In this document: positions 12,101-62,552 of the stretch, piece by piece
Layout of the letters: each line of letters opens with the position of its first letter
Position numbering within the stretch: the stretch's first letter is position 1
Source of the DNA: Schmidtea nova
Lineage: Eukaryota
Reading direction: 5' to 3'
Assembly: GCA_044892505.1 (NCBI GenBank)
Contig: CM097882.1
Coordinates: forward strand, 514,477,449 to 514,540,000
DNA length: 62,552 bases
Made by a program: the position numbers and the translations under genes
The notes under the pieces: generated by a model
Told to the model about the DNA's origin: nothing
Seen by the model: the letters and a program-made list of their open reading frames with translations, nothing else
Databases searched by the model: none

Positions 12101-13544
12101 TTCCGCGGCCCTGAATTTCAAGTATTATACTTGGTCTACCTTGCATTTCATGATAAGTCATACGAGGTCTTCTCCATTCGTCTTTTGTAAATATATTTTG
12201 TTCCATTTTATTCTTTATACTTTCGGAAATTTCATTAATCCACATAATCTTATCTTCATTCATATCAAATCTCTTTTCTAGGAATCTATATACTTTTTCT
12301 CCAGTTCTTTCATCGCTACACGTTATTTTTCTGTTTTCATTTTTCTGATCTGTACTGCCACTTTTATAAACATTAAAATTAGTTTTATTATCAATATTAT
12401 TACATAAATCTTTACTGACAAAATTAAAATTATTTACATTATTTAAATTATTTACATTATTCAAATTATTTACATGATTCAAATTATTTACATTATTATA
12501 ACCAGCATTTTCATCAAAATCAAAATTACCTAATAAATGGCTCCGATCATCGCCTCCTGTGATGGAGCTTCCTCGTTTGGGTATTGCATTTCTTCGTATT
12601 TCTCTTCGGCTTCACTTGAATAATTTACTTGATAGTTTGCATCTTGATTTCCAATTGCTGCTACCTCTCTTCTATTATACTGATTGTTTTGTTGAAATCG
12701 GTCCCTTTTATTTTGATATGCTGCATTGTTCCTTCCATGTTGGCTGATTTTCGGCCTAAATCTTTCTAAGTTTGTATAGCATTCAGTTTCTTTGTGACCT
12801 CGTAGATGACATCTCCTACACTGGATGTTTGGACATTCTTGGCGTACGTGTCCAAATAATCCACATCCAAAACACTTAATCTTCCTCTTTATAGTACATT
12901 CCAGGCTTATATGGCCTGGTTTCTGGCATGTCCAGCATACGGCGTTTTTAGTCACTTCCAGTGGTTTTGACATCGGAATCACATTTGTCTGTGCAGGTCT
13001 TTAAACGGCGTCTCTGTAGCTTTTGACAGGTTTCGGATATGCTATAGGTCGAATGGTGTTAACATCGCTTAAAGCTTTATTCACTTTCTCAACTTTTCTA
13101 ATTGTGCATTTAATTTCTTCTGACGTCTTTAGTTCTTGCATTTCTATTTCTTTTTTAACTTTTTTCTCTCGAGTCCCATTCTTCTTCGTTCCACTCATGT
13201 CGTAATAATCTTTTTGGTTAATTTCTCCACTTTTTCGATGAATCGGTCTGCTGAATCGGATCCTTGTTCATAATTAAGAGCTTCCTTTAAGTCTTCAAAT
13301 AATAATTTTGGCCTCGAAAATGCTGTTCTGAGATTTTCTTCGAATGTTTTGACTTCTGCTTTTTCATATTCATCATATAAAGGTTTATCCAACATGTGGT
13401 AACCAGAATCATCTGCATTTTGACAGATATTTTCGTGATATTAAAGAACTGTTGACATTCTTTGATGAATTCTTCCAATTCATCGTCTCTGGAATCTTTC
13501 TGGTAACATCCTGCTAATCAATAGGTTTGTTTGTGTGGTCACCA

Positions 13545-19131: not shown

Positions 19132-20074
19132 TCATAAAGAAATTTCAGCACAAATTCGAATAAAGCTATATTCATTTTCAAAAAAAGCAATTCAAAACAA
19201 AAATCAGTTTTTTCCAAGTGAATCGATAAAACAACTCCAAACTCAATAAATCCCTAATAAATCGCAAAACAATTTGGGCCCTCCTCTCAAAATTTTCCTT
19301 TGTTTTGATTGGCTACAAACGCGGTATGACATCATTTTCTTTGTTGTGGAGTCCACACTTCCTCCTACTCAATAAAACTCCAAACATAACGGCACTCAAA
19401 ATTATTCTCCAGAGAATTCAGTCAAGAGAAGTTCGAGTTGATAAGTCAAAAAAATAAATTTTGCGAACATTCTAACTACTTCCGAAATATTTCCAACATT
19501 GCTTAGGCGTCAAGTGGTGAGCAAGGTTATATGGCAATTGATGGGTCGTCGAGCCTAAGAATGACGATAGCAATCCGTCGTTCGGTCAGTTTTAATAATT
19601 TTGCAATGTTTAATGATTGTTCATGACAACTGCTTTTATTATACAAGCTTGATGCACCTGCTCCAATTTAATGTTAACTGATGCAAAATATGTGTCTGAT
19701 CAAATATTCGGTAACCTTTTAAACAAAACTACATAAATTTCTAAATATAACTGCAATATGATAAAACTATGAACACAATATGATAAAGAAAATCAAATTC
19801 CTAAAATTTTATCATCTTTTACTAAAATAATTTTTAAAGAAATAAACAAAAAATTAATTCGCATTTATTAAATTATAATATCAAATTATTTTATTTACAA
19901 ATTCATTTCAAAACTAAAAGACAATTAAATAAAGAAAAGATTTAATTATTTTCACTATTTATTAATTATAAATGTATAATTCCACAATTTTGTTTTAAAA
20001 TATAAAAATATTTTATTATAATTCGTAACATTTTTAAAAGTCTATAATTTTTTTTCATTTAAAATTGAAAAAGA

Positions 20075-21472
20075 ATGAAAAATTATTTCCACATGATAGA
20101 CATATTGAAAAAATATACTTTCAAATTCGAGTCGTCAATATCATTGGATATTAGTTGCGTGGTTTGTAAAGATTTGTTGAAAGATGCTTGCCAAGGTCCT
20201 TGTGGATGTTTGTACTGTTTGCAATGCATTGAGAACTACCTCGAGGATAATAAAAAGTGCTGTCCTGGAAATACCCCATATTGTACGGGAGATGAAATAA
20301 TATTCGGAGTGAATATCAACAGAGATAATAGTGCCAATAGGAAAATAGGAAAATTGAAGGTGAAATGTCCACTAGATTCATGTGAATTCCGTAGTGAATT
20401 AAGAGAAATGTCTGATCATTTGAAAATGTGTGGTAAAACTGAGCTTTGTTGTCCTTACAGAGAATTCGGTTGCAGCATTACTGCAATAGGAAACACAGAA
20501 TTGTTGGAACATGTCCAACAGAGTTCCCTTTGTCACAACAAAATGATAATTAACTGGATGATGAACATGAGAATTGAAATGATGGCACAAAAACGATTGG
20601 AAGTTCTTGAAATGAGAGTTTCTCGAATCCTGATAGACGTTACTCATGCAAACGAAAAGAAACAAGTAAATAATTGTAATCCCAATATAATAAGTTGACC
20701 CCTTCTTCCTCTTTCTCTTTATCAGTCGCTTATCGATCAATTGCGGGAACAACTAAAATCCGTCAGAAACGATAATAAAGATCTCAACAAACTGCTTTCA
20801 CAAATGCAAGGGGAAATTTTCCAATTGAAACATTCGATTTCCCAACAATCCGAATTGAACGATTCGACTTGCCGACTATTGAAATCGGAATTGGAATTGT
20901 TAAAATCAAAAATTTCAACAACCAATCAAATTGCGAGACCAAGCGATATGAAATTCGATATCCCAATCAAACTGTTGCCTGTGAAAACCGAGAAATGTTT
21001 GGATCTGGCACCGCCAGGGGATCTCGATAATGCAGTAGCGACACTTGAATGGGTGATTAATGATCTCGGCCGGTTGCGTGCAAATCGGGAAAATCTATGC
21101 AGTGATTGGTTCAATTCTGCGTTATTCGATTACAAAATGCTGCTCTGTTTGAATCCCGATGCAATCCGTGGCCAATCGGCGATGCAGATCACGTTCAATG
21201 TTTGCGATTTCAATGCCGCATCTGGTCGAGCGCTCTGGCCATTTTCTGCCCATGTCAAGCTGGCAATTTGCAGCCAATCACAGTCGGGAGCACCTTGTCA
21301 ACGGATCGATCGACACGTCAACGCAGACAACCCAATTGCAACATTGACAGTTGATCCGTTATGCAAATTTGATTTCCTTTATTCAGATTTGCAATCGATT
21401 GGCATAGATATTTCCCAGCCGATTCTCATTCGATGTGCCGTTGACAGCTTTAATTGTCAGCTTAAGCATTGA
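20075..21472 (+). CDS. TRAF: TRAF-like protein (RING, TRAF zinc fingers, coiled coil, divergent MATH); exons 20075-20665 and 20726-21472, about 445 aa
   Basis: RING CVVC..PCGCLYCLQC..CP; KVKCP..DHLKMC; CPYREFGC; MATH-like TLEWVI..DYKMLLCLNPD..WPF. A 60-nt GT-AG intron (20666-20725) joins the two ORFs in phase 0. Confidence 0.88.
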
Positions 21473-26950: not shown

Positions 26951-29900
26951 TAGGGTGGTCCTTAGACCAATGGTAATATTTTTTTCTCACAATTGGATGT
27001 CTCCCACCCTTTTAAAATGTTCCATTTGATGCCATAAGATACTGTGCAAATTTTTTTAATGATCAGATAATGTTTAGAGGTCGCCCAACAGCTCACAATT
27101 TATTAAAATGACCAAAAAATTTGACTTGAGCATAGTATAGTATTTTTATTACTAAACTGAAATTGGTAACGTTTTATTATGTTATTAAATGACTAGGAAA
27201 TATGAAACTCCGTAATGTACAGAATCTATTGTTAAGATTTATTTATAGGAATAAATGTTCTAGACTGTCAGTGTCAGTCGGTCCAACCAAAGACGATGTC
27301 CGCACTCCGCATTCCGCAACTAAGTCAATGTAATAACGACTTCTGACAGGTTGCATACTGACGACGATGGTCTGCCACAACTTGCAGCAGAAACTGAAAC
27401 TGGTCCTCATCGTATGTGATACACTTGTTTAGCTCCTGAACAAGGGCAACTCCACGTTCTGCATTATCATTGGTGACTAGTAGCTTAGACACGATCAACA
27501 TGCCATCTGTGTACTCCTGTCGAGTTTCCCAAGTGTCAGGATCGTAATTCAAGAAGTCTTGAGAAATATGGAGCTTATCAAAGAATTCCTGAGATCTGAC
27601 AGTTATGAAATCCTCCAAACTGTAGTTGCATGCACTGCTTGCAGACATTGTGATGCGTTTCAGACCTTTTGGTAGAAGTACTTTGTCGACGGCATCCTTG
27701 CTACAGTATTTCAGTGCTTTCACCATTTGACGTTTTGTATCGACCGGTACATCGGGATCGAAGAAGGCAAGACCCACTAAATCTTCCGACAAATACCAAA
27801 GATGATGCTCAAGTTTTTTGGATGTTGCGATAGAGATTTTCTCATTGTAACGCTTGTAATTGTGCAAATCTTGAAGCAGTTGCAGATCATTTCGAGGCGC
27901 ACTGGAAGCCAGTGGTGCAGTGAACCAGGCCTTGAGGTATATAACCACTGCAAAGATGCACATGTGGAGAAGTCCTTTCTCCTCGAACGATGTGAGCTTG
28001 AATTGTGAGCGAAACATCCACACTTTGAGTGAGTAGATCACTTTCGACATCCATCTCGCATGGTGCATTGCACCAGGTGCCATAAAATGAATCCCACGAT
28101 GGGGTAAGCCACCAAGAAATATGATAGATAATTCAATGAATTCTCTGTAGTCTTCTCGGACGTTGTCACGAAGCAGCTGCCTGTGTGCAAATTCCATTAC
28201 TTCGTTCTTCACCACGTCAGGTATTTCATTCAAATTAGCTCCCGTCTGGTAGTTACTGTGGTCGACGATTGACCACTTTTGTTGAAATCTCTTGAACAGA
28301 AGGACTTCAGGAGCAGATGATGGTGCAAGACTTACTGTAAATGCGGCTCCTGCCAACAGTTCCATAATGTGGTGGCGACAGGCAAAGTGTAGTAAGTCCT
28401 TGCCTAGCTTCTGTTCTATCAGAACACAGGCACCGTTGTGGATACCAGTGTTGGAACTAGTTGTATCAAAGCACAATCCTACCACACGATCCTGCACATT
28501 CCACTCATTCAGTGCCTGGACCACTGCAGATGACTGGTTCTCACCTGTTCCACCAGACATCTTGCTCACCTTCAATAGCTGACACACCCCAAAGCCGGTC
28601 ACAATTATAGGGAGGCGATCAACGTGATCCTTCCCAGTGAGATCGACCATTAGTTTGCCATCCCAATGTACCACCAAAGGAACATCACTAGACAAATCTT
28701 CCTTTAATGCAGCTGCCATTTCAGCTCTGTATTTCTCGCGGTGACGCTTTATAGAACTCCGATTTATATTGAGTTCATCAATATCATGCCCAAGGCTCTG
28801 AGCTGCCGCAGCAATGACAAACGTAGCCTTTCTGTCACTCAACTTGGTACGATCCAAGGCAGCTGCTAACTTTGGGGTAATCACATTTGTTGCTGCTCTG
28901 CTTTTCTTACGGCGAGGTGATGAGAACTCAGCAGGCTTATCTGTGTCCGATTCAGGTTTATTGTCATCTTACTACTGCTGCCAAATCCTGCAACCATTGT
29001 GCTAACGGATGCCTCGCTTTCTGCTCTTTCACGTCTCTTCCTCTCCAAGTTTATTCTGACTGCTTTTCTCTCTTCCTTTTCAGCTAATGCTCTATCAACT
29101 AATCCAAGGTAACCTCGTCGTCCTGGTTCTCGCTGTGCCTGCAGAAATTCTCTATCTTCCTCGATCTTCATAGTCGTTAGGGCGTCGGCATGTGCAATGT
29201 CAAAAAGATTCTTCATTTTGGCGCAAAACTCATCTTCTCTGGCAACATGGAGCTCTGTCTTGCGATCTTTGTGCTTTTTTAGCTGTGTCCAATCTTTGAA
29301 TAGTTGCTCCAGCTTGGTGATTGCATGGTCTTTGCGACATGTCGGTATGCGGGCCTTGTTCCAAATTCCAGTCACCTGTTCGATCACATGTGCTGATGCC
29401 TGTCGTGTCTGCAGACCATGGGTTAGGTGGTGATGGAAAAACAAACCCAATGCTTCACCATTTGATGCAAGTCTGAGAGTAGAAAGCACAGTAGTGGGTT
29501 GACCCAGTAGATAAACTGCAGTTTGACTTCGTGTTGTTATATCAAATTCTTCACTACATCACAACAACAACATATCATACAATACAATATTACACTAACA
29601 CTGGTGTGTCACTGTGTCTACATGTGGAATGTTTACTTTCTGGCCTAAAAAATGGCAAATAGTGCATAATAACTGAATGTTCTGAATGGCAAAGCAGCAG
29701 CTAAAACATACAACACATGAAAAAGTTTACTCACCAAAAAGATGACGCTATTTCATAGAAAACTTAATAAAACTGCAAATTCCTAATCAGACAGTATTAT
29801 TGATCAACAAAGATTATTTATTAGAGGTTAAATTAATTGTTTGGGATCAACTAACTAACAGAACTGACCAAAATAAGTAGTGAGAAAATAAAAAATAGTT

Positions 29901-44958: not shown

Positions 44959-46591
44959 AAATGCAATAAACCGTGCTCTTTCGATAATGAAGAGTCGGGA
45001 AACATATAAAGTCACCAATGATAGCACCGACAATTGGTGACAGCCAAACATTCACGGTGCACAGCAACGGTATTAACTTTCTCGTTGATACCGGTTCTAT
45101 AATTTCATTGTTACCGAACTACCTTTACAAAAACGCAAAAACAGAAACCACAAGTTTATGTGTAGCAAACGGCAGCCCTATTAAAACGTTCGGCAAACAA
45201 AACATCAACATTTCCGCCAATAATATACAGTACAATTGGCATTTCACCATCGCTGAAGTGAAACAAGCCATTTTAGGAGCAGATTTCCTCGCAAAATTCA
45301 ATCTACTAGTAGATTGCAAAAATGGGAAAATTATACCAAACAATTCAAATAACATAATCAACAAAGGTAATAAAAAAAACAACAAAACAAATCAACTACG
45401 ACATTGGAGTAATAATAGCGGAACACGGTGAAATAAAAACAAATGAACAGAAACTAAAAACAGAAAATAAAAACGAGCATATACCTTACGAAATCATAAA
45501 ACTGATAAAAACAATGCCAAACATAACAAACAAACTACAAACAAATAACGAAACAAAATGCAAAACTGAACACGCAATAATTAGCAACGGAAAGCCAGTT
45601 CATGCAAAAGTCAGGCAGTTGGACAAAAATAAACTCGAAATAACAAAAAATATATTCGAAGAACTATTAGAAAATCAAATCGTCAAACATTCTAATTCAA
45701 ATTGGTTTGGTTTTCGAAATGCAGCAACAACATTTCAATGTTTTATAGACCAAACTCTGAAAAATAATTAGAACACATTACGACGACATCCTGATAGCAA
45801 GTCCAAACAAAAAAAACAATTTAAAAGATAGCGAAAAGGTTTTTGAAACCCTGAATTCAGCAAACTTCAAACTCAACATTCAAAAATGCGAATATTTAAA
45901 AAAATAATTTTCTCGGGTATACACTACATGAAAAAGACACAAAAACCAATTGACAAAGAAAAAAGCTCCATACAACAGTTCAAACTGTTAAATACAAACC
46001 GAGAACTCAGTCGATTTTTGGGAATGGTTAACTTTTACCATGATGTAGCAAACCTTTAACTACTTTATATGATTTAATAAACCAGAAGAAACATTAAAAT
46101 TAGCTGGACTTAACAAGTAATTAAACAATTTGAAAAAGAAAAAACAAGGTTTTTCCAAGTAACATGACTTGGATACCCAAATCAAGAATTAGAATACAAC
46201 TTAGCAACAGACTGTTCTAGATTTGCAATGTGTGCAACATTATACCAAGACAGTGAATACAGTAAACAACCGATTGGTTTCTTTTCTAAGAAGTTAAAGA
46301 CACATCAGACAAGATACTCCACTTTTGATCGAGAACTACTCGCAATTCATGAAACTATAAAACACTCGGAACACTCATTGGAAGCAATGAACTTCAAAAT
46401 CTTTACAGATCATAAGCCACTAACAAATGCAATTCAAGTGAAAAAGCCGTCACCAAGACAAATAAGACAATTAAATAATAAATCACAATTTAATTGTACA
46501 ATCAGTTATATGACTGGAGTCACAAACATAGCAGTAAATACTCTATCAAGAATAATCTAAAACTCTATCAAGAAATCTAAAAGTTATTTTA

Positions 46592-47230: not shown

Positions 47231-50200
47231 GGGATCGTCCATAAAGTACGTACGCCAAAAAATCTTAAATGCTACCCCCTCCCTCCCCATGTTGCAGTGT
47301 GTACTTTTTCGGCCCTACCCCCCCCCCCCCCGGTACATACACTTTACACCCCGGAAAAGAATGATTAATCTTTAGACAAAGATGGACTTCTATGAATGTC
47401 ATGGGTCGTTTGTTTCAGTTTTTTAAAACCATGTCCTAACGATAAGAATCTTCTTATTATCGCCAGCGAACTTACTTAATCCCAGGAATTCGGCCGCATT
47501 TAACATTATTTTCAAATGAATTTCCAAATAATACCGAAATAGAATAGCAAAATATAAAACTATAAACTACAATTATCAATGCGACTGTTTTAAACAACCT
47601 ATTGCACGATGAGAGAAGTGAAACGGAATATAAAGAAAATTTGCCATGCTATAACGCCAACTTTAAATTTACCATGCACACCTGTAGGTTCTTACAATAT
47701 CCACGCACTAAAACATTTTTCTTTAAATTAATAATATGACGTTTCGTGAAAGTCATTTTAATAATATTTCATTTTAACACATGTTTTAATATTATGGTAC
47801 GCCTTTAAGAAAAATTTTAATATATAAAAACTATGGATTTATTGTCTTTTTTCTAAGGAAAGTCAATTAATCCAAAATATTCCTCAATATTTTAAAACTT
47901 GCATTGGATATTTAAGAAAAAATATTTTACCCCAATGGACAATGCGCAAAAATACAAAAACATTTCTCAACAGGTCTGCAAAGCAATGCCACACACAAGC
48001 AAACAATGGCAGCAGAAGGAAAGTAATAGGCTGTGGCGAAAAGTAAAAAACAAAGAAGCTACATACGAATCCGTTATTGATGAATTGGGACGGCAAACAA
48101 TAGCAAACAAATGTCGGGTACTTTCCTTTTGGTCTCGAGCGAAAACCCCCTTACAGCCATCGCCCACATCAACTGTACAACTTGCTGAAAGTATGGACCG
48201 AGGGACAGCACTCGATATTATAAATGTCGAAGAAAGCAAATCCATCAAAGCATTAAGTTCTCAAAACAAAGTCGATTTAGGTAAGAATATACAGGAGACT
48301 GTAGGTTCAACACCTCGACAAGATAAGCTCCGTGTGGAAATAGTGCAGTTACAGGAGCAAATGTTAGCTTTGATAAACGTGCGTCGTGCAGGATTGATGA
48401 CAGTAGAACTTTCAGCAAAAGAAACGCATGTAGGCAAACAATTACAACAAAAACAATCATCTTTAAAGCGATTACAGCGTGAGGCTCTGCGCCAGCGACA
48501 ACGACGGGCAATTTTAAAACGCACGCTTGAAGATATAGTGGACGAGCAGCCTAATTTAGCAACAAAGCTTAAAAAATTTACTAGAGTAAATACAGGTAGA
48601 CCAGCTGTAAACGAAGATCAACCAGATATTCTTGATGCTATTGTCAATATCACATCGATTGGAGCAGCTGCAAGCGACAGGCGCAGATCAGAAGAACTGC
48701 GTTCATGCAAGACACTTGATGATTTGCAAAAAAATTTATCGAGACAAGGATATCATCTGTCACGATCAGCAACATATTTGAGACTGCAGCCCAAAAGATC
48801 ATGCTCTTGTGAAGGAAAACACCACGTCAAGACAGTTCCTGTTAAATTAATTAAGACTGCAAACACGGCTCGTGATAGGCACCGAGACGCAGCATTTGCA
48901 TTCGCATCAATGCAATACATGGATGAAATTTGTTCAATTTTTGGTTCGGATTCATGCTTTTACCTCAGTATAGATGACAAGGCCAAAGTACCGTTGGGAT
49001 TGGCAGCTGCAACAAAACAGGCTCCGATCTTGATGCATCTTGACTACGAGGTACGTTTACCTGATCATGATTTTGTTGTAGCTTCTAGGCATAAACTTAT
49101 ACCTTCAGTATATGCAGCATGCAATATCGAGACAGATAAGTTTAACGATGATGTATCCTACTCTGGGCCTACATATATTGCTATCAGATCTATGAAACAT
49201 GATAGCAGTACCCCTTTTACGCATGGTCATGATTTAGAACGTCTAGTTTCGCTGGAACATTTTAAGACTTTAATGTGCACTCGAGAAGGACCCGTCAAAC
49301 CGATATTTGTTCTGGCAAGTGACGGTGGACCCGATGAGAATCCAAGATTCCCTAAAACATTACAAGTTGCTGCTAGCAGATTTGTAGCATGGGATTTGGA
49401 TGTGTATTTGTCAGGAACTCATGCACCACACTATTCTGCATATAATAGGGTGGAACGGCGCATGGCGCCACTAAGTCGAGAGCTGACAGGTTTGGTGTTG
49501 CCGCACGATCATTATGGCACCCATCTTAACGCGGCTGGAAAAACCATTGACTTGGCCTTAGAGAAAAAGAATTTTGTTAAGGCCGCCGAAACATTAGCAC
49601 AAGTATGGTCCGATGTGGTAATTGATGGTTTTCCAGTTCATGCTGAACATGTCGAGGCAGCAGAACATCCTGCGACATTTGAACCAGATGCAAAATGGGT
49701 GGCAATCCATGTAAGACAGAGTCAATATTGTCTAAATATTGTTAAGTGCGATGAGCCCAGTTGTTGCAGACCTTGGCGCAGTTCGTGGAAGCAATATTTC
49801 CCACAGCGTTTCATACCAGGCCCGGTTGTACTATCTCATGCTTTGGATGGAATCGGAATTCCCGACCCCGAAATTGCGCGCAATATCGTAAAGCCATATT
49901 TTTCAACAATGGCACAACGTTTAGGATATGTGGGGGAAAAAATTCCAATTGACTCTTGTTTTGATCTGTATTGACCTTCAATATCCACAATGGAAATTGA
50001 GAAAAGAACTTGCGAAATCTGCAACATTTACCACGTATCACAGGCGAGTATGAAACGCCATAAAAATGCACATATTCAAACAGTTGATAATACGTCAAAT
50101 ATTTCTGTGCGAAGGGAAAAGATTCAATGTGATGCTAACAGAAAACAAGAATGCGCTGAACTTATAACTGATATTGGAAATGAACATGTTGGAAATTTCA

Positions 50201-57979: not shown

Positions 57980-58290
57980 GGTACCCCCCCCCCCCCACGT
58001 ACCCCCCGTTACCCAAGTGTTATAAAACCCAACCGACTGTTCCAGACTGCCTACGGCAGATTACTCAGATTATTGTTAAACTTTTTATATAGGGTAAGTA
58101 AATAGGATCATTCCCCAAGTAGAGTTAAGTAAATTGGATTACTCTATATAAAAAGGTTATAGCTGAGTTGAGTAAATCAATAATAATTCAATTTAAAATA
58201 TTTATTAATCTTATTCAACTTAACTACAAGCAAGTAAACAGTTAATTATGAAAAATAACAAGGATTAATCAAATTTAGTGTCACAGATTC

Positions 58291-59767
58291 CTATGAAGAT
58301 TCGATTAGGTCGTCCGCAATGTTTACAGGTGATGCTGCTGAAGGATCTGATTGGTTTGGTTCTAGGGAGCTCCTGAACAATCTCGTCGTGTTCTGATAAG
58401 GGTTCTCTATCACCTGAAGAATAATAAGATAAAAATTATATATAATAATATACTTCTAATTCATTTATATAACATTTGTATAGAGGCTCTTTAAAATGAT
58501 GAACGACAATTCGACGATTAATCGCTGCTTGAATTTCAGGCGATATATTGTCAGGAAAGAAGTTATCAAAGGTATTAATGCAGAATATCCGCGGGCAGCA
58601 TTTTGGGATGATTGCAACGCTATATTTAATATTAACACAATTCTCGAATGCCAGATCAATTAGACTCAAAAACTCAGAAGCTGAAAATTTATTGAAATAT
58701 AAGTCGTCAAAGACAACGCCATCTGTCTTGGAAACATCTGATGATATTCGACCTAACATCTGCATGTGCTTTACGTGTACAGGAACTTTGAAGTGGTTTA
58801 GCGCGAAATTGGTCTTGCCGATGCCGCTCGTACCGATAAATATATGACTGCGCATATCATGGACATTAATTGAAGCCCTAGCAAAATGAATAAAATTGGC
58901 ATTCGCAGGCTTTCCATATTCAGAAATCAATGATTCGATAATTACTTTGCGCTTGGTTAGATAATGAAACGGTTCGTGGTCCTTGATAACTTTAAGTGCC
59001 TCGTCAAAAGAAGTTGCATTAAGAGATTGTTTAAAATGATTATCATAATATTTCTTACCCTGTTCGCCATAACATATATTGAGGCCTCCTGGAACTCTCG
59101 ACTCCTGTTTTGTGGCGTATTGGTGAACCTCAGATCTCGCAGAAGCTGGATGCCCTTTAACATAGGGAATAAAGAAGGTCGATCTGACAGCGGAGATAGT
59201 GTGATTTCGAACTGTCTCCAGCATACACTGCAGATGGCGGAAATCATTTTCGCCAATTTCCTCCTGGCATACAAAGTACTTAGTAGGCTTAGAGTCACTC
59301 CATATTGCTCTAAGTCTGGCTTCATTTTCTCTAAAGTAGGCCATGCCGATGTTGAAGCTCCAAAGATAATATCGTTTCCGAAAAATGTTATCGTTTGCAT
59401 CGTTGACTCTATTTCCCAAACAGGAAGAAGAGTAGCGATTAATCTCTGCCGCCACTGCGTCAGTCTTCACCTCTCGAAGTCGTTCAAGGTTTTTTCTTGA
59501 ATCATCCATTGAACTAACTTTAGACTGTTGCGGAGCATTATGCATACTGTGCACAGGTGTGGCTGGCATTGAGGAACAAAGCTCGTCTCCCCCAAGAATA
59601 GGTTCTTCACGTGGCCGCTTAGATGATGTATTGGAGGATTGTTCCGCAGTGCGTTTGTGTACGATTCTAGAGTCTTTAATTTTTTGATAAATATATATAT
59701 AAATAATTAAAATTTTACGTTTAGCTCTGCCCAACGAACGTTTGTTTGGCGACTTATCCAAGGACAT
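58291..59767 (-). CDS. rep: CRESS-type Rep (HUH endonuclease + SF3 helicase); unspliced ORF 58436-59767; predicted exons 59767-59719, 59673-58454 and 58413-58291 (463 aa)
   Basis: Motif I LWSFN, motif II RHLQC, motif III QYATK, Walker A GTSGIGKT, Walker B VVFDD, motif C IFCIN, Arg finger INRR. Two AT-rich GT-AG segments of 45 and 40 nt; AATAAA on the minus strand at about 58200. Confidence 0.92.
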
Positions 59768-59922
59768 TCTTCGACCGTGTTGTATTTTTCAACAAGTAAG
59801 GTTATTTTCTTCACCAATAACGAGTGTTGCCCAACTAATAAAATATTAAATTGTTTTAATGCTCGGGTATGATCTTCTATCTTAACTATTGTTGTTGTGG
59901 ATATAACTCCGTCGTCTGACAT
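59467..59922 (-). CDS. Predicted spliced accessory protein overlapping Rep (exons 59922-59719 and 59673-59467, 136 aa)
   Basis: Removing the same 45-nt intron joins the 71-aa ORF in phase 0 to a 68-codon open alternative frame (CQPHLCTVC). Confidence 0.55.
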
Positions 59923-60005: not shown

Positions 60006-60593
60006 ATGCCTAAATTCAAAGGAGAATTTCATATCCCAAATTATAATTTTTGTGGTCCTGGAACTAGGACAGACATTCGGCTAGATAAAAATAATATTCC
60101 CCATAAATTTTCTGAGCCTATTAATCAAATAGACGAGCAGTGCTTAAAGCATGATATTGTTTACGGTAGTACCAAAGATAGAACCAAAAGATACCATTCA
60201 GATAAAAAACTTATTATGGATATTAGGTACTTACGAAATAAAACCAGAGAAGAAGATGTAGTAGGAAACCTTATAATATTTGTATTCGAATTAAAAAATT
60301 TAGTTGAGTCAAAACTAGGCCTAATTAATAGTAACAAAATTACCCCCGAGGAACGCCAAGCTATGAAAAATTATGTTAATAATTTAGAATATGCTACATC
60401 TCTAACAAAGTTTCTCGGAACTGGGCATGATCTAAAAAAACTAAATGCTAATTGGTATCATGACGCCTTATTGTTTGTATATCGTATATACAGTACCCAT
60501 ATTAGACCTGCTATACACAAAACAGTTATGTCTTTTGAAAATAAATTAAGGACTAATCCGTATCATGCGTTATTAATGAGCAATAATCTCTAA
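60006..60593 (+). CDS. Viral phospholipase A2 domain protein (VP1u-like)
   Basis: Ca-binding loop YNFCGPGT, PINQIDEQC, catalytic KHDIVY and downstream SDKKL. Confidence 0.9.
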   Translation: MPKFKGEFHIPNYNFCGPGTRTDIRLDKNNIPHKFSEPINQIDEQCLKHDIVYGSTKDRTKRYHSDKKLIMDIRYLRNKTREEDVVGNLIIFVFELKNLVESKLGLINSNKITPEERQAMKNYVNNLEYATSLTKFLGTGHDLKKLNANWYHDALLFVYRIYSTHIRPAIHKTVMSFENKLRTNPYHALLMSNNL

Positions 60594-60613
60594 GAAGCGA
60601 CGTATTTAAAGAA

Positions 60614-62552
60614 ATGGGATTGAATTGGAAATTTAATACGCGGGCTATAAACTATGCTTTACGAAATTATGTGAAACCTTCATGGCGTGCTACAAGGCGA
60701 TTTATGCATACTAAAGGAGATGTTCTGGGACAGACCTTTAATGATCTTGTTATGGCTGCAATGGAACACATGAAAGTAGGAAGATATGAGAGTACTAGGG
60801 AATTTATGTTTAAATATAATAAAGACGAACATGCATTTTTTGAAATGGTGAATTCAGATGACTTAATTGATGTATTTAAGATGTCAGAATTATACAGTAA
60901 GATAGACTTACGAGAATTATTTCGATATAATCACCAAGATAGATATACCCTACAATCAAGATATCTAGATGAGCATAAAGAATTAGATATGTTTGCTAAA
61001 GATAAATCAGAAGCATATAATAGATATGGCCATGATATTATTAAACGATGGTTTGATCACTTATCAATACAAGAAGTTGCAAATATTATGAAAATAAAAT
61101 CAAAATACACAGACGAAGAAATTGTAAGTCATCAGTGGTGGAAATATTATAAATATATCCCGAATTTAATAAAAGGAAATGAGTGGTTATATGCTTATTT
61201 TTTTCAACGAAGATATGACTTGCCGTTATATGAACGTTTAAAACAAGCCATCGGAAATACTCTTTATCAGTTAGAAGGTATTCACGGATATCCATTTAAA
61301 GCAAGTATTAATTTTGAACACAACGAACTTCCGAAAGAAGATGAAGATTTAACAGAAGAAAGAGTTAAACGTTCCGCTCCTACAGTTAAACAATATAGAA
61401 CGACGGAACAGTTACATGATAAATTTGAAACGTTTTTGCATAAACTAAGACATGAATCTTATACTAATAAAAATAATCATTTTGAAATTGTTCAAAGAGG
61501 AAGAGTATTAAATTACTTGAGGCAATATAATCATCATAAATCGCCTACTCATGCTGCTTGGAGCGCTGCATATACAGCCGAGATGGTAGCCTACGAGGAA
61601 CGCTTATCTAAAATGTATGCTGATAGGACAGATCGTATAGTCGTCGATCATTCGTCAATTGTTAACGACAATCACGACCTATATAATAAGGAAGTTTACA
61701 AATATCAAGGCATTAATACAGTTACAGAAGCTTTGAATGAAATGGCAAATGCAGGAACAACAGGAGCTCCTTCGACTGACCCAGGAACCAGTAGCTCAGG
61801 TGGCGGAGGGGGAATTTTACGAGGAAGTCAAGGAGACCATAGACCGCCTCTCGAGGCAAGTCGACTCACTTTTACCACCACCAACTGCGGGGCCTCGTGC
61901 ATCCAAACTACTGAGATCACGACTGGTATAATATCAATCTCGAGTACCCTTATCCTCATATTGTGGCTTCAAATCCGGACTTTTGGTCGGCGATTAATCG
62001 TTACCTGTGGTGGAAACCGATATCTATGCACTACGAAATCTTTAATATCCAAGTCATTGGTGAAACTAGCGCCAATAATTTCAACGGTTTACAACAACAA
62101 GCGGAATTTTTAGTTTATAAAGATACGAAACAGATATTTGGACCATGTGCTGCTCCTCCTACAGGTGCGAAATCATTTAAGGATATGTGGTTGGGTGAAG
62201 CAACATTACACAATGGATTTAAATTGGATGGCGGACTAGCATTATTAACACCTTGTCCTTTAGAGAAAGCAGGCTGGAATTACATTACAGAGACATGTGC
62301 CGAAGTTGAAATAATAAACTGTAATACTGACAGTAGTTATACATATGATTATGAAGCGAGTAAAAAAAATGCACCAAGATATATAAGAGAATGGCAAGAC
62401 CAAAATATAAATCTAAAAACCCATCCATAAAAAAACGTCGTTCCTTGGTATAGATTTGATTACTTTGGATGTCGAAAAATAAAACCGTTTTATCAAGTAT
62501 TAGGTTCGATTGGGCGAATGTGTTATACAGCTGATAAACGGAAATGTCTGTA
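60614..62552 (+). pseudogene. Parvovirus-like capsid gene with long unique N-terminal region; frameshift at about 61915, in-frame TAA at 62428-62430, continues past the window end
   Basis: MANAGTTG...SSSGGGGG at ATG 61742 (VP2-like start). After the shift, DWYNINLEY..FWSAINRYLWWKPISMHYEIFNIQVIGE..NN matches the parvoviral pattern DWQRLINN.WGFRPK.L.FKLFNIQVKEV. The frame reopens after the TAA (KNVVPWYRF...). Confidence 0.8.

Follow-up and report, generated by a model that had tools for sequence, protein, structure and literature searches.

Probable reading of one viral unit in two frames through shared introns in an integrated PEVE/PIVE-like element of Schmidtea nova

Introduction

Can one very short intron serve two overlapping viral proteins, and what kind of virus would carry it? 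The question is raised by a stretch of 62,552 nt of the Schmidtea nova genome (contig CM097882.1, positions 514,477,449 to 514,540,000), referred to here as the window, near the right end of which an earlier note, made from the letters alone, had recognized a Rep gene with two short introns, the first of them apparently shared with an upstream open reading frame. This Rep region belongs to an endogenous virus of about 6 kb that has 38 DNA matches in the same genome, at 64-100% identity, which makes it possible to follow splice sites and reading frames through related copies. The reading preferred here, with a probability of about 0.7, is that the locus is an integrated copy of a virus of about 6 kb, likely with linear, hairpin-ended ssDNA and of the PEVE/PIVE kind, whose left unit would use two short introns and a predicted long one to read the same DNA in two frames.

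The locus and its copies

The genome (G000) comprises 1.25 Gb; at the protein level, Rep is matched in it 97 times and a second helicase 58 times, figures that count pieces and not copies. Fifty-two loci were fetched, many of them one place at two extents, and 34 non-redundant sequences, the window included, were analysed. Since the copies are mutually related, the copy counts given below describe non-independent events. Exon edges were placed using exon sequence only, and intron 1 was located by protein-guided mapping in 25 of the 34 sequences, leaving nine unmapped. The helicase, capsid and Rep genes stand together in one unit, in constant order, in 13 of the 32 extended loci (L021-L052). 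A second lineage (L044 and L046-L051, n=7), with a Rep about 40-55% identical, was excluded from the counts as too diverged; there the helicase gene lies after Rep and convergent with it, not after the capsid gene, and in two loci a palindrome is found 5' of the helicase. The copies form diverged lineages and are not the product of a single burst.

Several copies are also arranged in unusual ways. A second copy, partly deleted and of another sub-lineage, lies directly after the window copy (L021:4500-8340); L041 is a rearranged copy with the helicase and the capsid end upstream; and L026:6921-7428 is a head-to-head palindrome of terminal repeats of about 500 bp. The L026 palindrome and the L041 rearrangement look like replication intermediates or concatemer junctions.

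Elsewhere in the window, an intronless frame of 574 codons (6107-7831, plus strand) carries an innexin domain (PF00876, E 2.9e-44); the roughly 180 residues after it have no Pfam match and presumably resemble, as judged by eye, a Ulp1-type cysteine protease. At 9164-13000, 27325-29558, 44991-46560 and 47896-49974 lie degraded remnants of Gypsy-like pol, together with two long frames that resemble transposases; the two frames tested among these pieces gave no Pfam match.

Layout of the element

From left to right the element consists of a repeat, the Rep/X unit transcribed toward the left end, the capsid gene read rightward, the helicase gene read leftward and a second repeat. Its parts outside the Rep/X unit are the following:

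57990 to 58200, no strand: left inverted terminal repeat, its hairpin tip lost in the window copy
60006 to 62552, plus strand: capsid gene with an N-terminal PLA2, extending past the window to L021:3575
L021:3606-4280, beyond the window, minus strand: stand-alone parvovirus-type SF3 helicase ORF of 225 codons
L021:4279-4480, beyond the window: right repeat, related to the left one and 80% identical to it

The four loci in which both ends are present measure 5.7-6.1 kb, with inverted repeats of 190-238 bp at 90-98% identity. An intact tip (L032:1725-1880) folds as a T with two palindromic arms at -77 kcal/mol, and both orders of the arms are found among the copies as well as at the two ends of one copy. 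Parvovirus termini are known to exist in such flip and flop arm orders.

The capsid gene of the window is broken at three places (near 60590, near 61920 and at 62430), and among the 12 loci scanned two have a frame of 1,042-1,066 codons with PLA2 at its start (domain match E 1.8e-13). The last 462 residues reach an Atlas feature score of 0.96 to clusters of PF00740 (parvovirus capsid) at a recognition value below the reliable range. The best PDB comparison gave E 0.06 to a VP2, the predicted fold failed (pLDDT 27), and a word-index protein search gave no match for the C-terminal region; on these data a capsid of parvovirus type is a plausible assignment of modest reliability. In eight of the same 12 loci, where the major capsid region begins, a second frame holds an overlapping ATG-started ORF some 125 codons long (61737-61931, plus strand, cut short in the window; L022:4435-4809, L025:3717-4091 and others), a position that, as we take it, recalls AAP of AAV or SAT of protoparvoviruses.

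The stand-alone helicase matches PF01057 (E 2.5e-13) and AAV Rep40 (E 3.5e-6) and has no nuclease domain, and only four weak matches were returned for it by the word-index protein search. It is the most conserved gene of the element, at 90-98% identity among six aligned copies as against 57-92% for Rep. No ORF for a protein-primed family B polymerase, as expected of Bidnaviridae, was found between the terminal repeats, and an Rfam search gave no match.

Intron 1 and two overlapping starts

The Rep/X unit of the window is made up of the following parts, the third intron being a prediction from sequence:

59719 to 59922, minus strand: exon 1, with the ATG of ORF X at 59922 (68 codons) and that of Rep at 59767 (16 codons plus 1 nt)
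59674 to 59718, minus strand: intron 1, 45 nt, GT...AG, phase 0 in ORF X and phase 1 in Rep
58454 to 59673, minus strand: exon 2, the Rep core with HUH motifs I-III, central domain and SF3 helicase; its first 615 nt are also ORF X
59467 to 59469, minus strand: premature TGA in ORF X, a lesion of the window copy, with a stop in one other copy too
58414 to 59058, minus strand: predicted third intron, 645 nt, from a GTAAG donor at 59058 to the acceptor of intron 2
58414 to 58453, minus strand: intron 2, 40 nt, GT...AG, 88% AT, phase 0 in Rep after codon 438
58267 to 58413, minus strand: last exon, with two conserved open frames
Phase-0 frame of the last exon, minus strand: 40 codons to a TAG at 58293, the Rep tail reached through intron 2
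Phase-1 frame of the last exon, minus strand: 48 codons with a CxxC, stop in the region 58267-58269
58201 to 58206, minus strand: AATAAA, the likely poly(A) signal of the Rep/X unit, 85 nt beyond the TAG

The coordinates and lengths that had been proposed for introns 1 and 2, 45 and 40 nt with GT...AG ends, were confirmed. Intron 1 is 93% AT, has no stop in the Rep frame and contains, at 59709, the TAA of the upstream frame that its removal would skip, in line with the earlier note. Among the 25 mapped copies the GT is kept in all and the AG in 22; 23 of the introns measure 38-48 nt, the two others being one of 70 nt (an AT expansion) and one of 11 nt (a deletion). Their lengths fall 15/5/5 by remainder modulo three, so that 10 of 25 are off multiples of three. 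With intron 1 left unspliced, only 2 of 24 copies have an X frame that is still open and in register, and only nine have such a Rep frame, so the intron's freedom from stops in the Rep frame of the window is incidental. Across the paralogous copies the interiors of both introns drift while the splice dinucleotides stay, and their GC content is 13-14% versus 36-47% in the flanking exons. AT-dinucleotide expansions occur within intron 1 of L005 and intron 2 of L050, with the splice ends intact.

In the 19 copies whose first X exon has 67-70 codons, the Rep frame has an ATG 49-55 nt ahead of the donor, and in 18 of them this is the next ATG after that of ORF X, which is the pattern expected of leaky scanning. 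Because the splice ends are kept, retention breaks the frames and two ATGs precede the donor, the comparison supports one intron common to two overlapping frames, the central claim of the earlier note; the conservation of splice sites and of the alternative frame, which that note had proposed as a check, was found for both in the paralogous copies. Retention of intron 1 may all the same matter for Rep in some lineages, since 15 of 25 copies, and not just a third of them, have an intron 1 whose length is divisible by three. The contigs from four public runs, of unknown kind, contain no joint at any of the three introns and were counted neither way.

ORF X

Between 59922 and 58959 the X frame meets only two stops, the TAA at 59709 inside intron 1 and the TGA at 59469, and once intron 1 is removed it is open in the window for 68 codons to the latter (68+68 = 136). 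A protein of 136 aa had been predicted on this ground. It did not survive the comparison: in 29 copies examined, six of them unscorable at this codon, the position is a sense codon in 21 of the 23 scored and a stop only in the window and in L045, and in undamaged copies the frame runs for 217-238 codons after intron 1. Over the 600 nt before 59058, of 25 copies, 15 have no X stop, six have one and the remaining four are frameshifted or carry two, and in unshifted copies the unused frame has 11-20 stops over the same distance. Under a null model that keeps the Rep protein, zero X stops have a probability of 0.001-0.014 in each of the four copies tested. Given the sense codon and these low stop counts, ORF X is inferred to encode an overlapping, putative accessory protein of about 300 aa (some 306-313), rich in Cys, His and Trp, and the 136-aa protein is, as read from the copies, a decay product. 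Nine aligned copies share invariant C, H and W columns, among them an unpaired invariant CxxC. No credible Pfam match was found for ORF X, and its predicted fold (pLDDT 51) had no Foldseek match at E<=0.001.

Intron 2 and the two-frame last exon

Intron 2 was mapped in 24 of the 34 sequences, with GT in 23 and AG in all 24; its length varies between 35 and 41 nt (11/5/8 by remainder modulo three), and 13 of the 24 are off multiples of three. Introns 1 and 2 are almost certainly real. The last exon that follows is open in two frames at once. In 23 of 24 copies the phase-0 frame runs for 35 codons or more, and in 23 of 24 the phase-1 frame runs for 39 or more; both persist through in-frame indels, whereas the third frame is shut within six codons in all 24. 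Shuffling of the last exon left both frames open in 1.4% of shuffles. The head motif of the phase-0 tail is present in 24 of 24 copies with synonymous variation, and 23 of 24 retain the CxxC of the phase-1 frame, whose Cys, Gly and Arg codons vary synonymously. If the phase-0 protein is held constant, the probability of a phase-1 frame open by chance is 0.5-3.6% in the five copies tested (five of five). In the other direction the test is weak, the phase-0 frame being open in 18-43% of cases given the phase-1 protein, so that support for the phase-0 tail comes from its conserved head motif. Antisense coding was considered as the cause of the conservation and rejected, the antisense frames being open in 0, 6 and 2 of 24 copies. 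Conservation of the last exon in two frames is shown by comparison of the copies. In three of the seven second-lineage loci, intron 2 and both frames were recognized by eye.

The intron that replaces the Rep stop with a 40-aa tail therefore stands as it had been described, on GT in 23 of 24, AG in 24 of 24 and the invariable head motif. The AATAAA beyond the tail is likewise present, 85 nt after the stop where about 90 had been given, and 15 of 24 copies have such a signal after the last exon, some of the scanned segments being short.

A predicted third intron

The phase-1 frame of the last exon calls for a route of entry. The best candidate is a donor within exon 2, at 59058, joined to the acceptor of intron 2. 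In Rep this site corresponds to residue 237, past the nuclease motifs and shortly ahead of a Gemini_AL1_M-like stretch (241-280). Its phase is 1 in Rep and 0 in ORF X, so that one 645-nt splice would take Rep into the CxxC frame and ORF X into the phase-0 frame. The donor reads GTAAG in 28 of 30 mapped copies, and among eight conserved GT columns of exon 2 it alone has GTRAG above 5% (20/20). The Lys codon of Rep at this place is AAG in 20 of 20 copies; none of the 14 other conserved Rep Lys codons is fixed, with at most 13 of 20 copies using one codon, and the preceding Rep codon switches between Gly and Ser yet the GT is retained. Beyond 59058, X-frame stops appear after 8-38 codons, scattered, in 29 of 30 copies. 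The third-position diversity of Rep has no sharp step there (0.46-0.48 before, 0.43-0.59 after), and the GTAAG could in principle reflect coding constraint in two frames at once. On balance, it seems probable from the aligned copies that this intron exists.

Alternative explanations

It could be argued that the AT-rich blocks are low-complexity linkers and not introns, since no spliced reads were seen and the Rep frame of the window passes through block 1; such an idea is scarcely tenable, given that 10 of 25 copies of block 1 and 13 of 24 of block 2 have changed in length so as to break the frame, while both flanking exons are conserved, and that GTA opens the block in 24 of 24 copies for intron 1 and 23 of 24 for intron 2. 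Nor does it help the 136-aa protein as a normal viral product via intron 1, a very improbable reading, that a TGA also stands at the corresponding codon of L045, a distant copy: single X stops occur elsewhere in other copies, and two at one codon are therefore unremarkable. Besides the sense codon in 21 of 23 copies, the 140 codons downstream of TGA 59469 keep invariant Cys and Trp, and the contigs of all four public runs carry another letter than the window at 59467. A more serious competitor, though still an unlikely one, accepts introns 1 and 2 without a third and has the CxxC frame reached through a donor that escaped detection, by frameshifting of the ribosome or by re-initiation. One CxxC by itself makes up only half of a zinc site, and ORF X has an unpaired invariant one, so that in this variant the CxxC tail would perhaps complete a four-cysteine zinc site with that of ORF X; moreover, retention of intron 2 takes Rep into the CxxC frame in three of 24 copies. 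Against this, no GT column in the phase that would lead from X to the CxxC is conserved in at least 90% of 20 copies, a Met precedes the CxxC in only one of 24, and retention is not a general route because the length of intron 2 varies modulo three.

A different objection concerns not the splice map but the nature of the element, which might be a self-replicating, transposon-like family and not the result of repeated insertions of an infectious virus. Such a family would fit the numbers found in a single genome, 38 DNA matches and, at the protein level, 97 to Rep and 58 to the helicase, and PIVE and similar repeats have been treated as transposons (PMC3198968). In this case, however, the ends, inspected informally, break off raggedly inside the hairpins and show neither a common terminal base nor an evident duplication of the target; head-to-head repeats and tandem and rearranged copies occur; capsid and PLA2 are kept; the lineages have diverged; and PEVE is described as extrachromosomal (PMC3198968). 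The objection is accordingly regarded as improbable, and insertion of a virus with two short introns and a predicted third remains the preferred reading.

Rep and its relatives

With HUH motifs I-III and an SF3 helicase, Rep is of CRESS type (Atlas 0.98). It has 949 matches at E<=0.001, the best of them unnamed and at 34-45%, and among the 26 matches looked up, virus names occur in two clusters, a bird-associated CRESS virus and PEVE. Rep groups with CRESS Reps and has no Parvo_NS1 match; no match was found in PDB sequences or in the word-index protein search, and a pattern scan of IMG/VR or JGI metagenomes with the Rep and helicase alignments and P0001 gave no relatives.

PEVE, a planarian virus seldom treated in the literature searched, has been known since 2002. 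Its Rep is 31% identical over 272 aa (E 3e-39) and is placed, in a tree of 91 sequences, as sister to the clade of the present copies with a support of only 0.73. The PEVE contig (L053) has 5,699 nt, 243-nt terminal repeats, an ambisense arrangement and an ORF over the 5' half of Rep, and its capsid ORF is matched by the capsid profile of these copies (i-E 1.1e-10; hhalign 76%). Candidate short introns at 3542-3589 and 4028-4083, each in both overlapping frames, are predicted from that single sequence. The deposited 272-aa PEVE Rep begins at motif II, and for this reason it likely lacks a spliced N-terminal part.

The element therefore shares with PEVE a CRESS-type Rep, an ambisense unit flanked by inverted terminal repeats, a homologous capsid and an ORF overlapping Rep. 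A parvovirus-type helicase is present here, and a parvovirus-like one is reported on the PEVE small segment and on PIVE_1p (PMC3198968). The same source describes PIVE as integrated in a planarian, and PIVE may be closer than PEVE to these copies. In contrast, PEVE has large and small segments where Rep, capsid and helicase form one unit here; L053 has no detectable PLA2, which the present capsid has; the overlapping ORFs have no detectable homology, the intron positions are unlike and the terminal repeat sequences are unrelated; and L053 has no counterpart of the two-frame last exon. A search with an ITR pattern did not bring up the PEVE small segment. PEVE and PIVE are the closest known relatives, and the element is best filed as a monopartite, PLA2-bearing variant of their kind. 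In the literature searched there was no account of this splice map, of the hairpin shape or of the two-frame last exon, part of which the original PEVE paper, its supplements and the Repbase entry may cover.

Comparison with parvoviruses, CRESS viruses and flatworm introns

Parvoviridae have linear, hairpin-ended genomes of 3.6-6.2 kb, which the element would fit with its 5.7-6.1 kb and T-shaped hairpins. Their NS1, however, joins HUH and parvovirus-type SF3 domains, a fusion that the element lacks, its Parvo_NS1 match being the helicase-only ORF of 225 aa. With ambisense densoviruses it shares size, T hairpins with inverted terminal repeats, the N-terminal PLA2 of the capsid, the glycine-rich start of the major capsid region and overlapping frames like NS1/NS2. 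For the segmented densovirus of Acheta domesticus (AdSDV), a spliced NS1 isoform is reported to stop just before SF3 and to take its tail from an ATG-less ORF (PMC10267136), and the predicted helicase-less Rep with its tail resembles that isoform. The difference from densoviruses is that the initiator here is of CRESS type and not of NS1 type, and that the parvovirus-type helicase has its own gene at the genome end.

Cressdnaviricota share the Rep family, and the predicted third intron has a parallel there in splicing that takes out the central part of Rep, isoforms without it being reported for geminiviruses and porcine circovirus (bioRxiv 10.64898/2026.02.19.706752; PMC7468197). CRESS virus genomes are described as circular (PMC6668415); here there are hairpin ends, a form deduced from integrated copies only, and a second helicase. 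Oomyviridae are reported to pair a CRESS Rep with a PLA2 capsid (PMC13426907), a likeness of gene content. Swazi bat megaparvovirus was set aside as kin, being described in the same source as NS1-based with PLA2 on a separate ORF. The element works like an ambisense densovirus, yet it departs from Parvoviridae in NS1 and from Cressdnaviricota in the form of its genome.

The size of the introns had been taken to match the host and to suggest adaptation to its spliceosome, on the model of a 60-nt intron of a TRAF gene. That intron exists (20666-20725, GT...AG, in frame) in a TRAF-like gene at 20069-21472 (plus strand) whose RING, zf-TRAF and MATH domains all score below the Pfam cut-offs, but the viral introns, at 35-48 nt, are shorter and lie at or below the short-intron peak of 45-85 bp given for a planarian (PMC13594981); for a fluke a peak of 37 bp is reported (PMC6530080). 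Introns of 35-48 nt are plausible for a flatworm spliceosome, from which adaptation does not follow.

Proposed expression and replication

Based on the reading frames and splice sites described, the following scheme may be proposed. Ribosomes would initiate either at the ATG of ORF X, which comes first, or, by scanning further, at that of Rep, and removal of intron 1 would be needed for both frames. Splicing of intron 2 would yield a full Rep of 463 aa, by arithmetic, with the phase-0 tail. The 59058 splice would instead end Rep where its HUH nuclease domain closes, leaving out the central and helicase domains, and add the CxxC tail to give 270 aa; in ORF X it would add the phase-0 tail. The short Rep may act as a nicking or origin-binding regulator, like Rep' of circoviruses or the helicase-less NS1 of the cricket densovirus, and the full Rep may resolve the terminal hairpins by rolling-hairpin replication. 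AAV Rep40/52 is a packaging motor, and the separate parvovirus-type helicase could serve the same end. What is put forward here on the function of the short Rep, of X and of the helicase is by analogy only.

Implications

Taken together, these copies and PEVE may represent an unclassified flatworm virus family between Cressdnaviricota and Parvoviridae, a tentative proposal to which we give somewhat less than even odds. In such a family a circular-virus Rep would have taken over the rolling-hairpin replication of a linear parvovirus-type genome, NS1 would survive only as a packaging helicase, and one transcript in two frames would give, via three shared splice sites, a full Rep, a nuclease-only Rep with a zinc tail and an accessory protein. 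It has been proposed that parvoviruses descend from CRESS viruses with circular genomes, their Rep having ceased to re-join the genome (PMC6668415), and a CRESS-type Rep on a hairpin-ended genome beside a helicase-only NS1 makes this step of parvovirus origin testable; if the proposal is true, the family would be a natural test case for the interconversion of linear parvoviruses and circular CRESS viruses. The copies also constitute, in the lineage of a regeneration model, a rare comparative set on two subjects: viral micro-introns of 35-48 nt, and coding in two frames at once across splice junctions.
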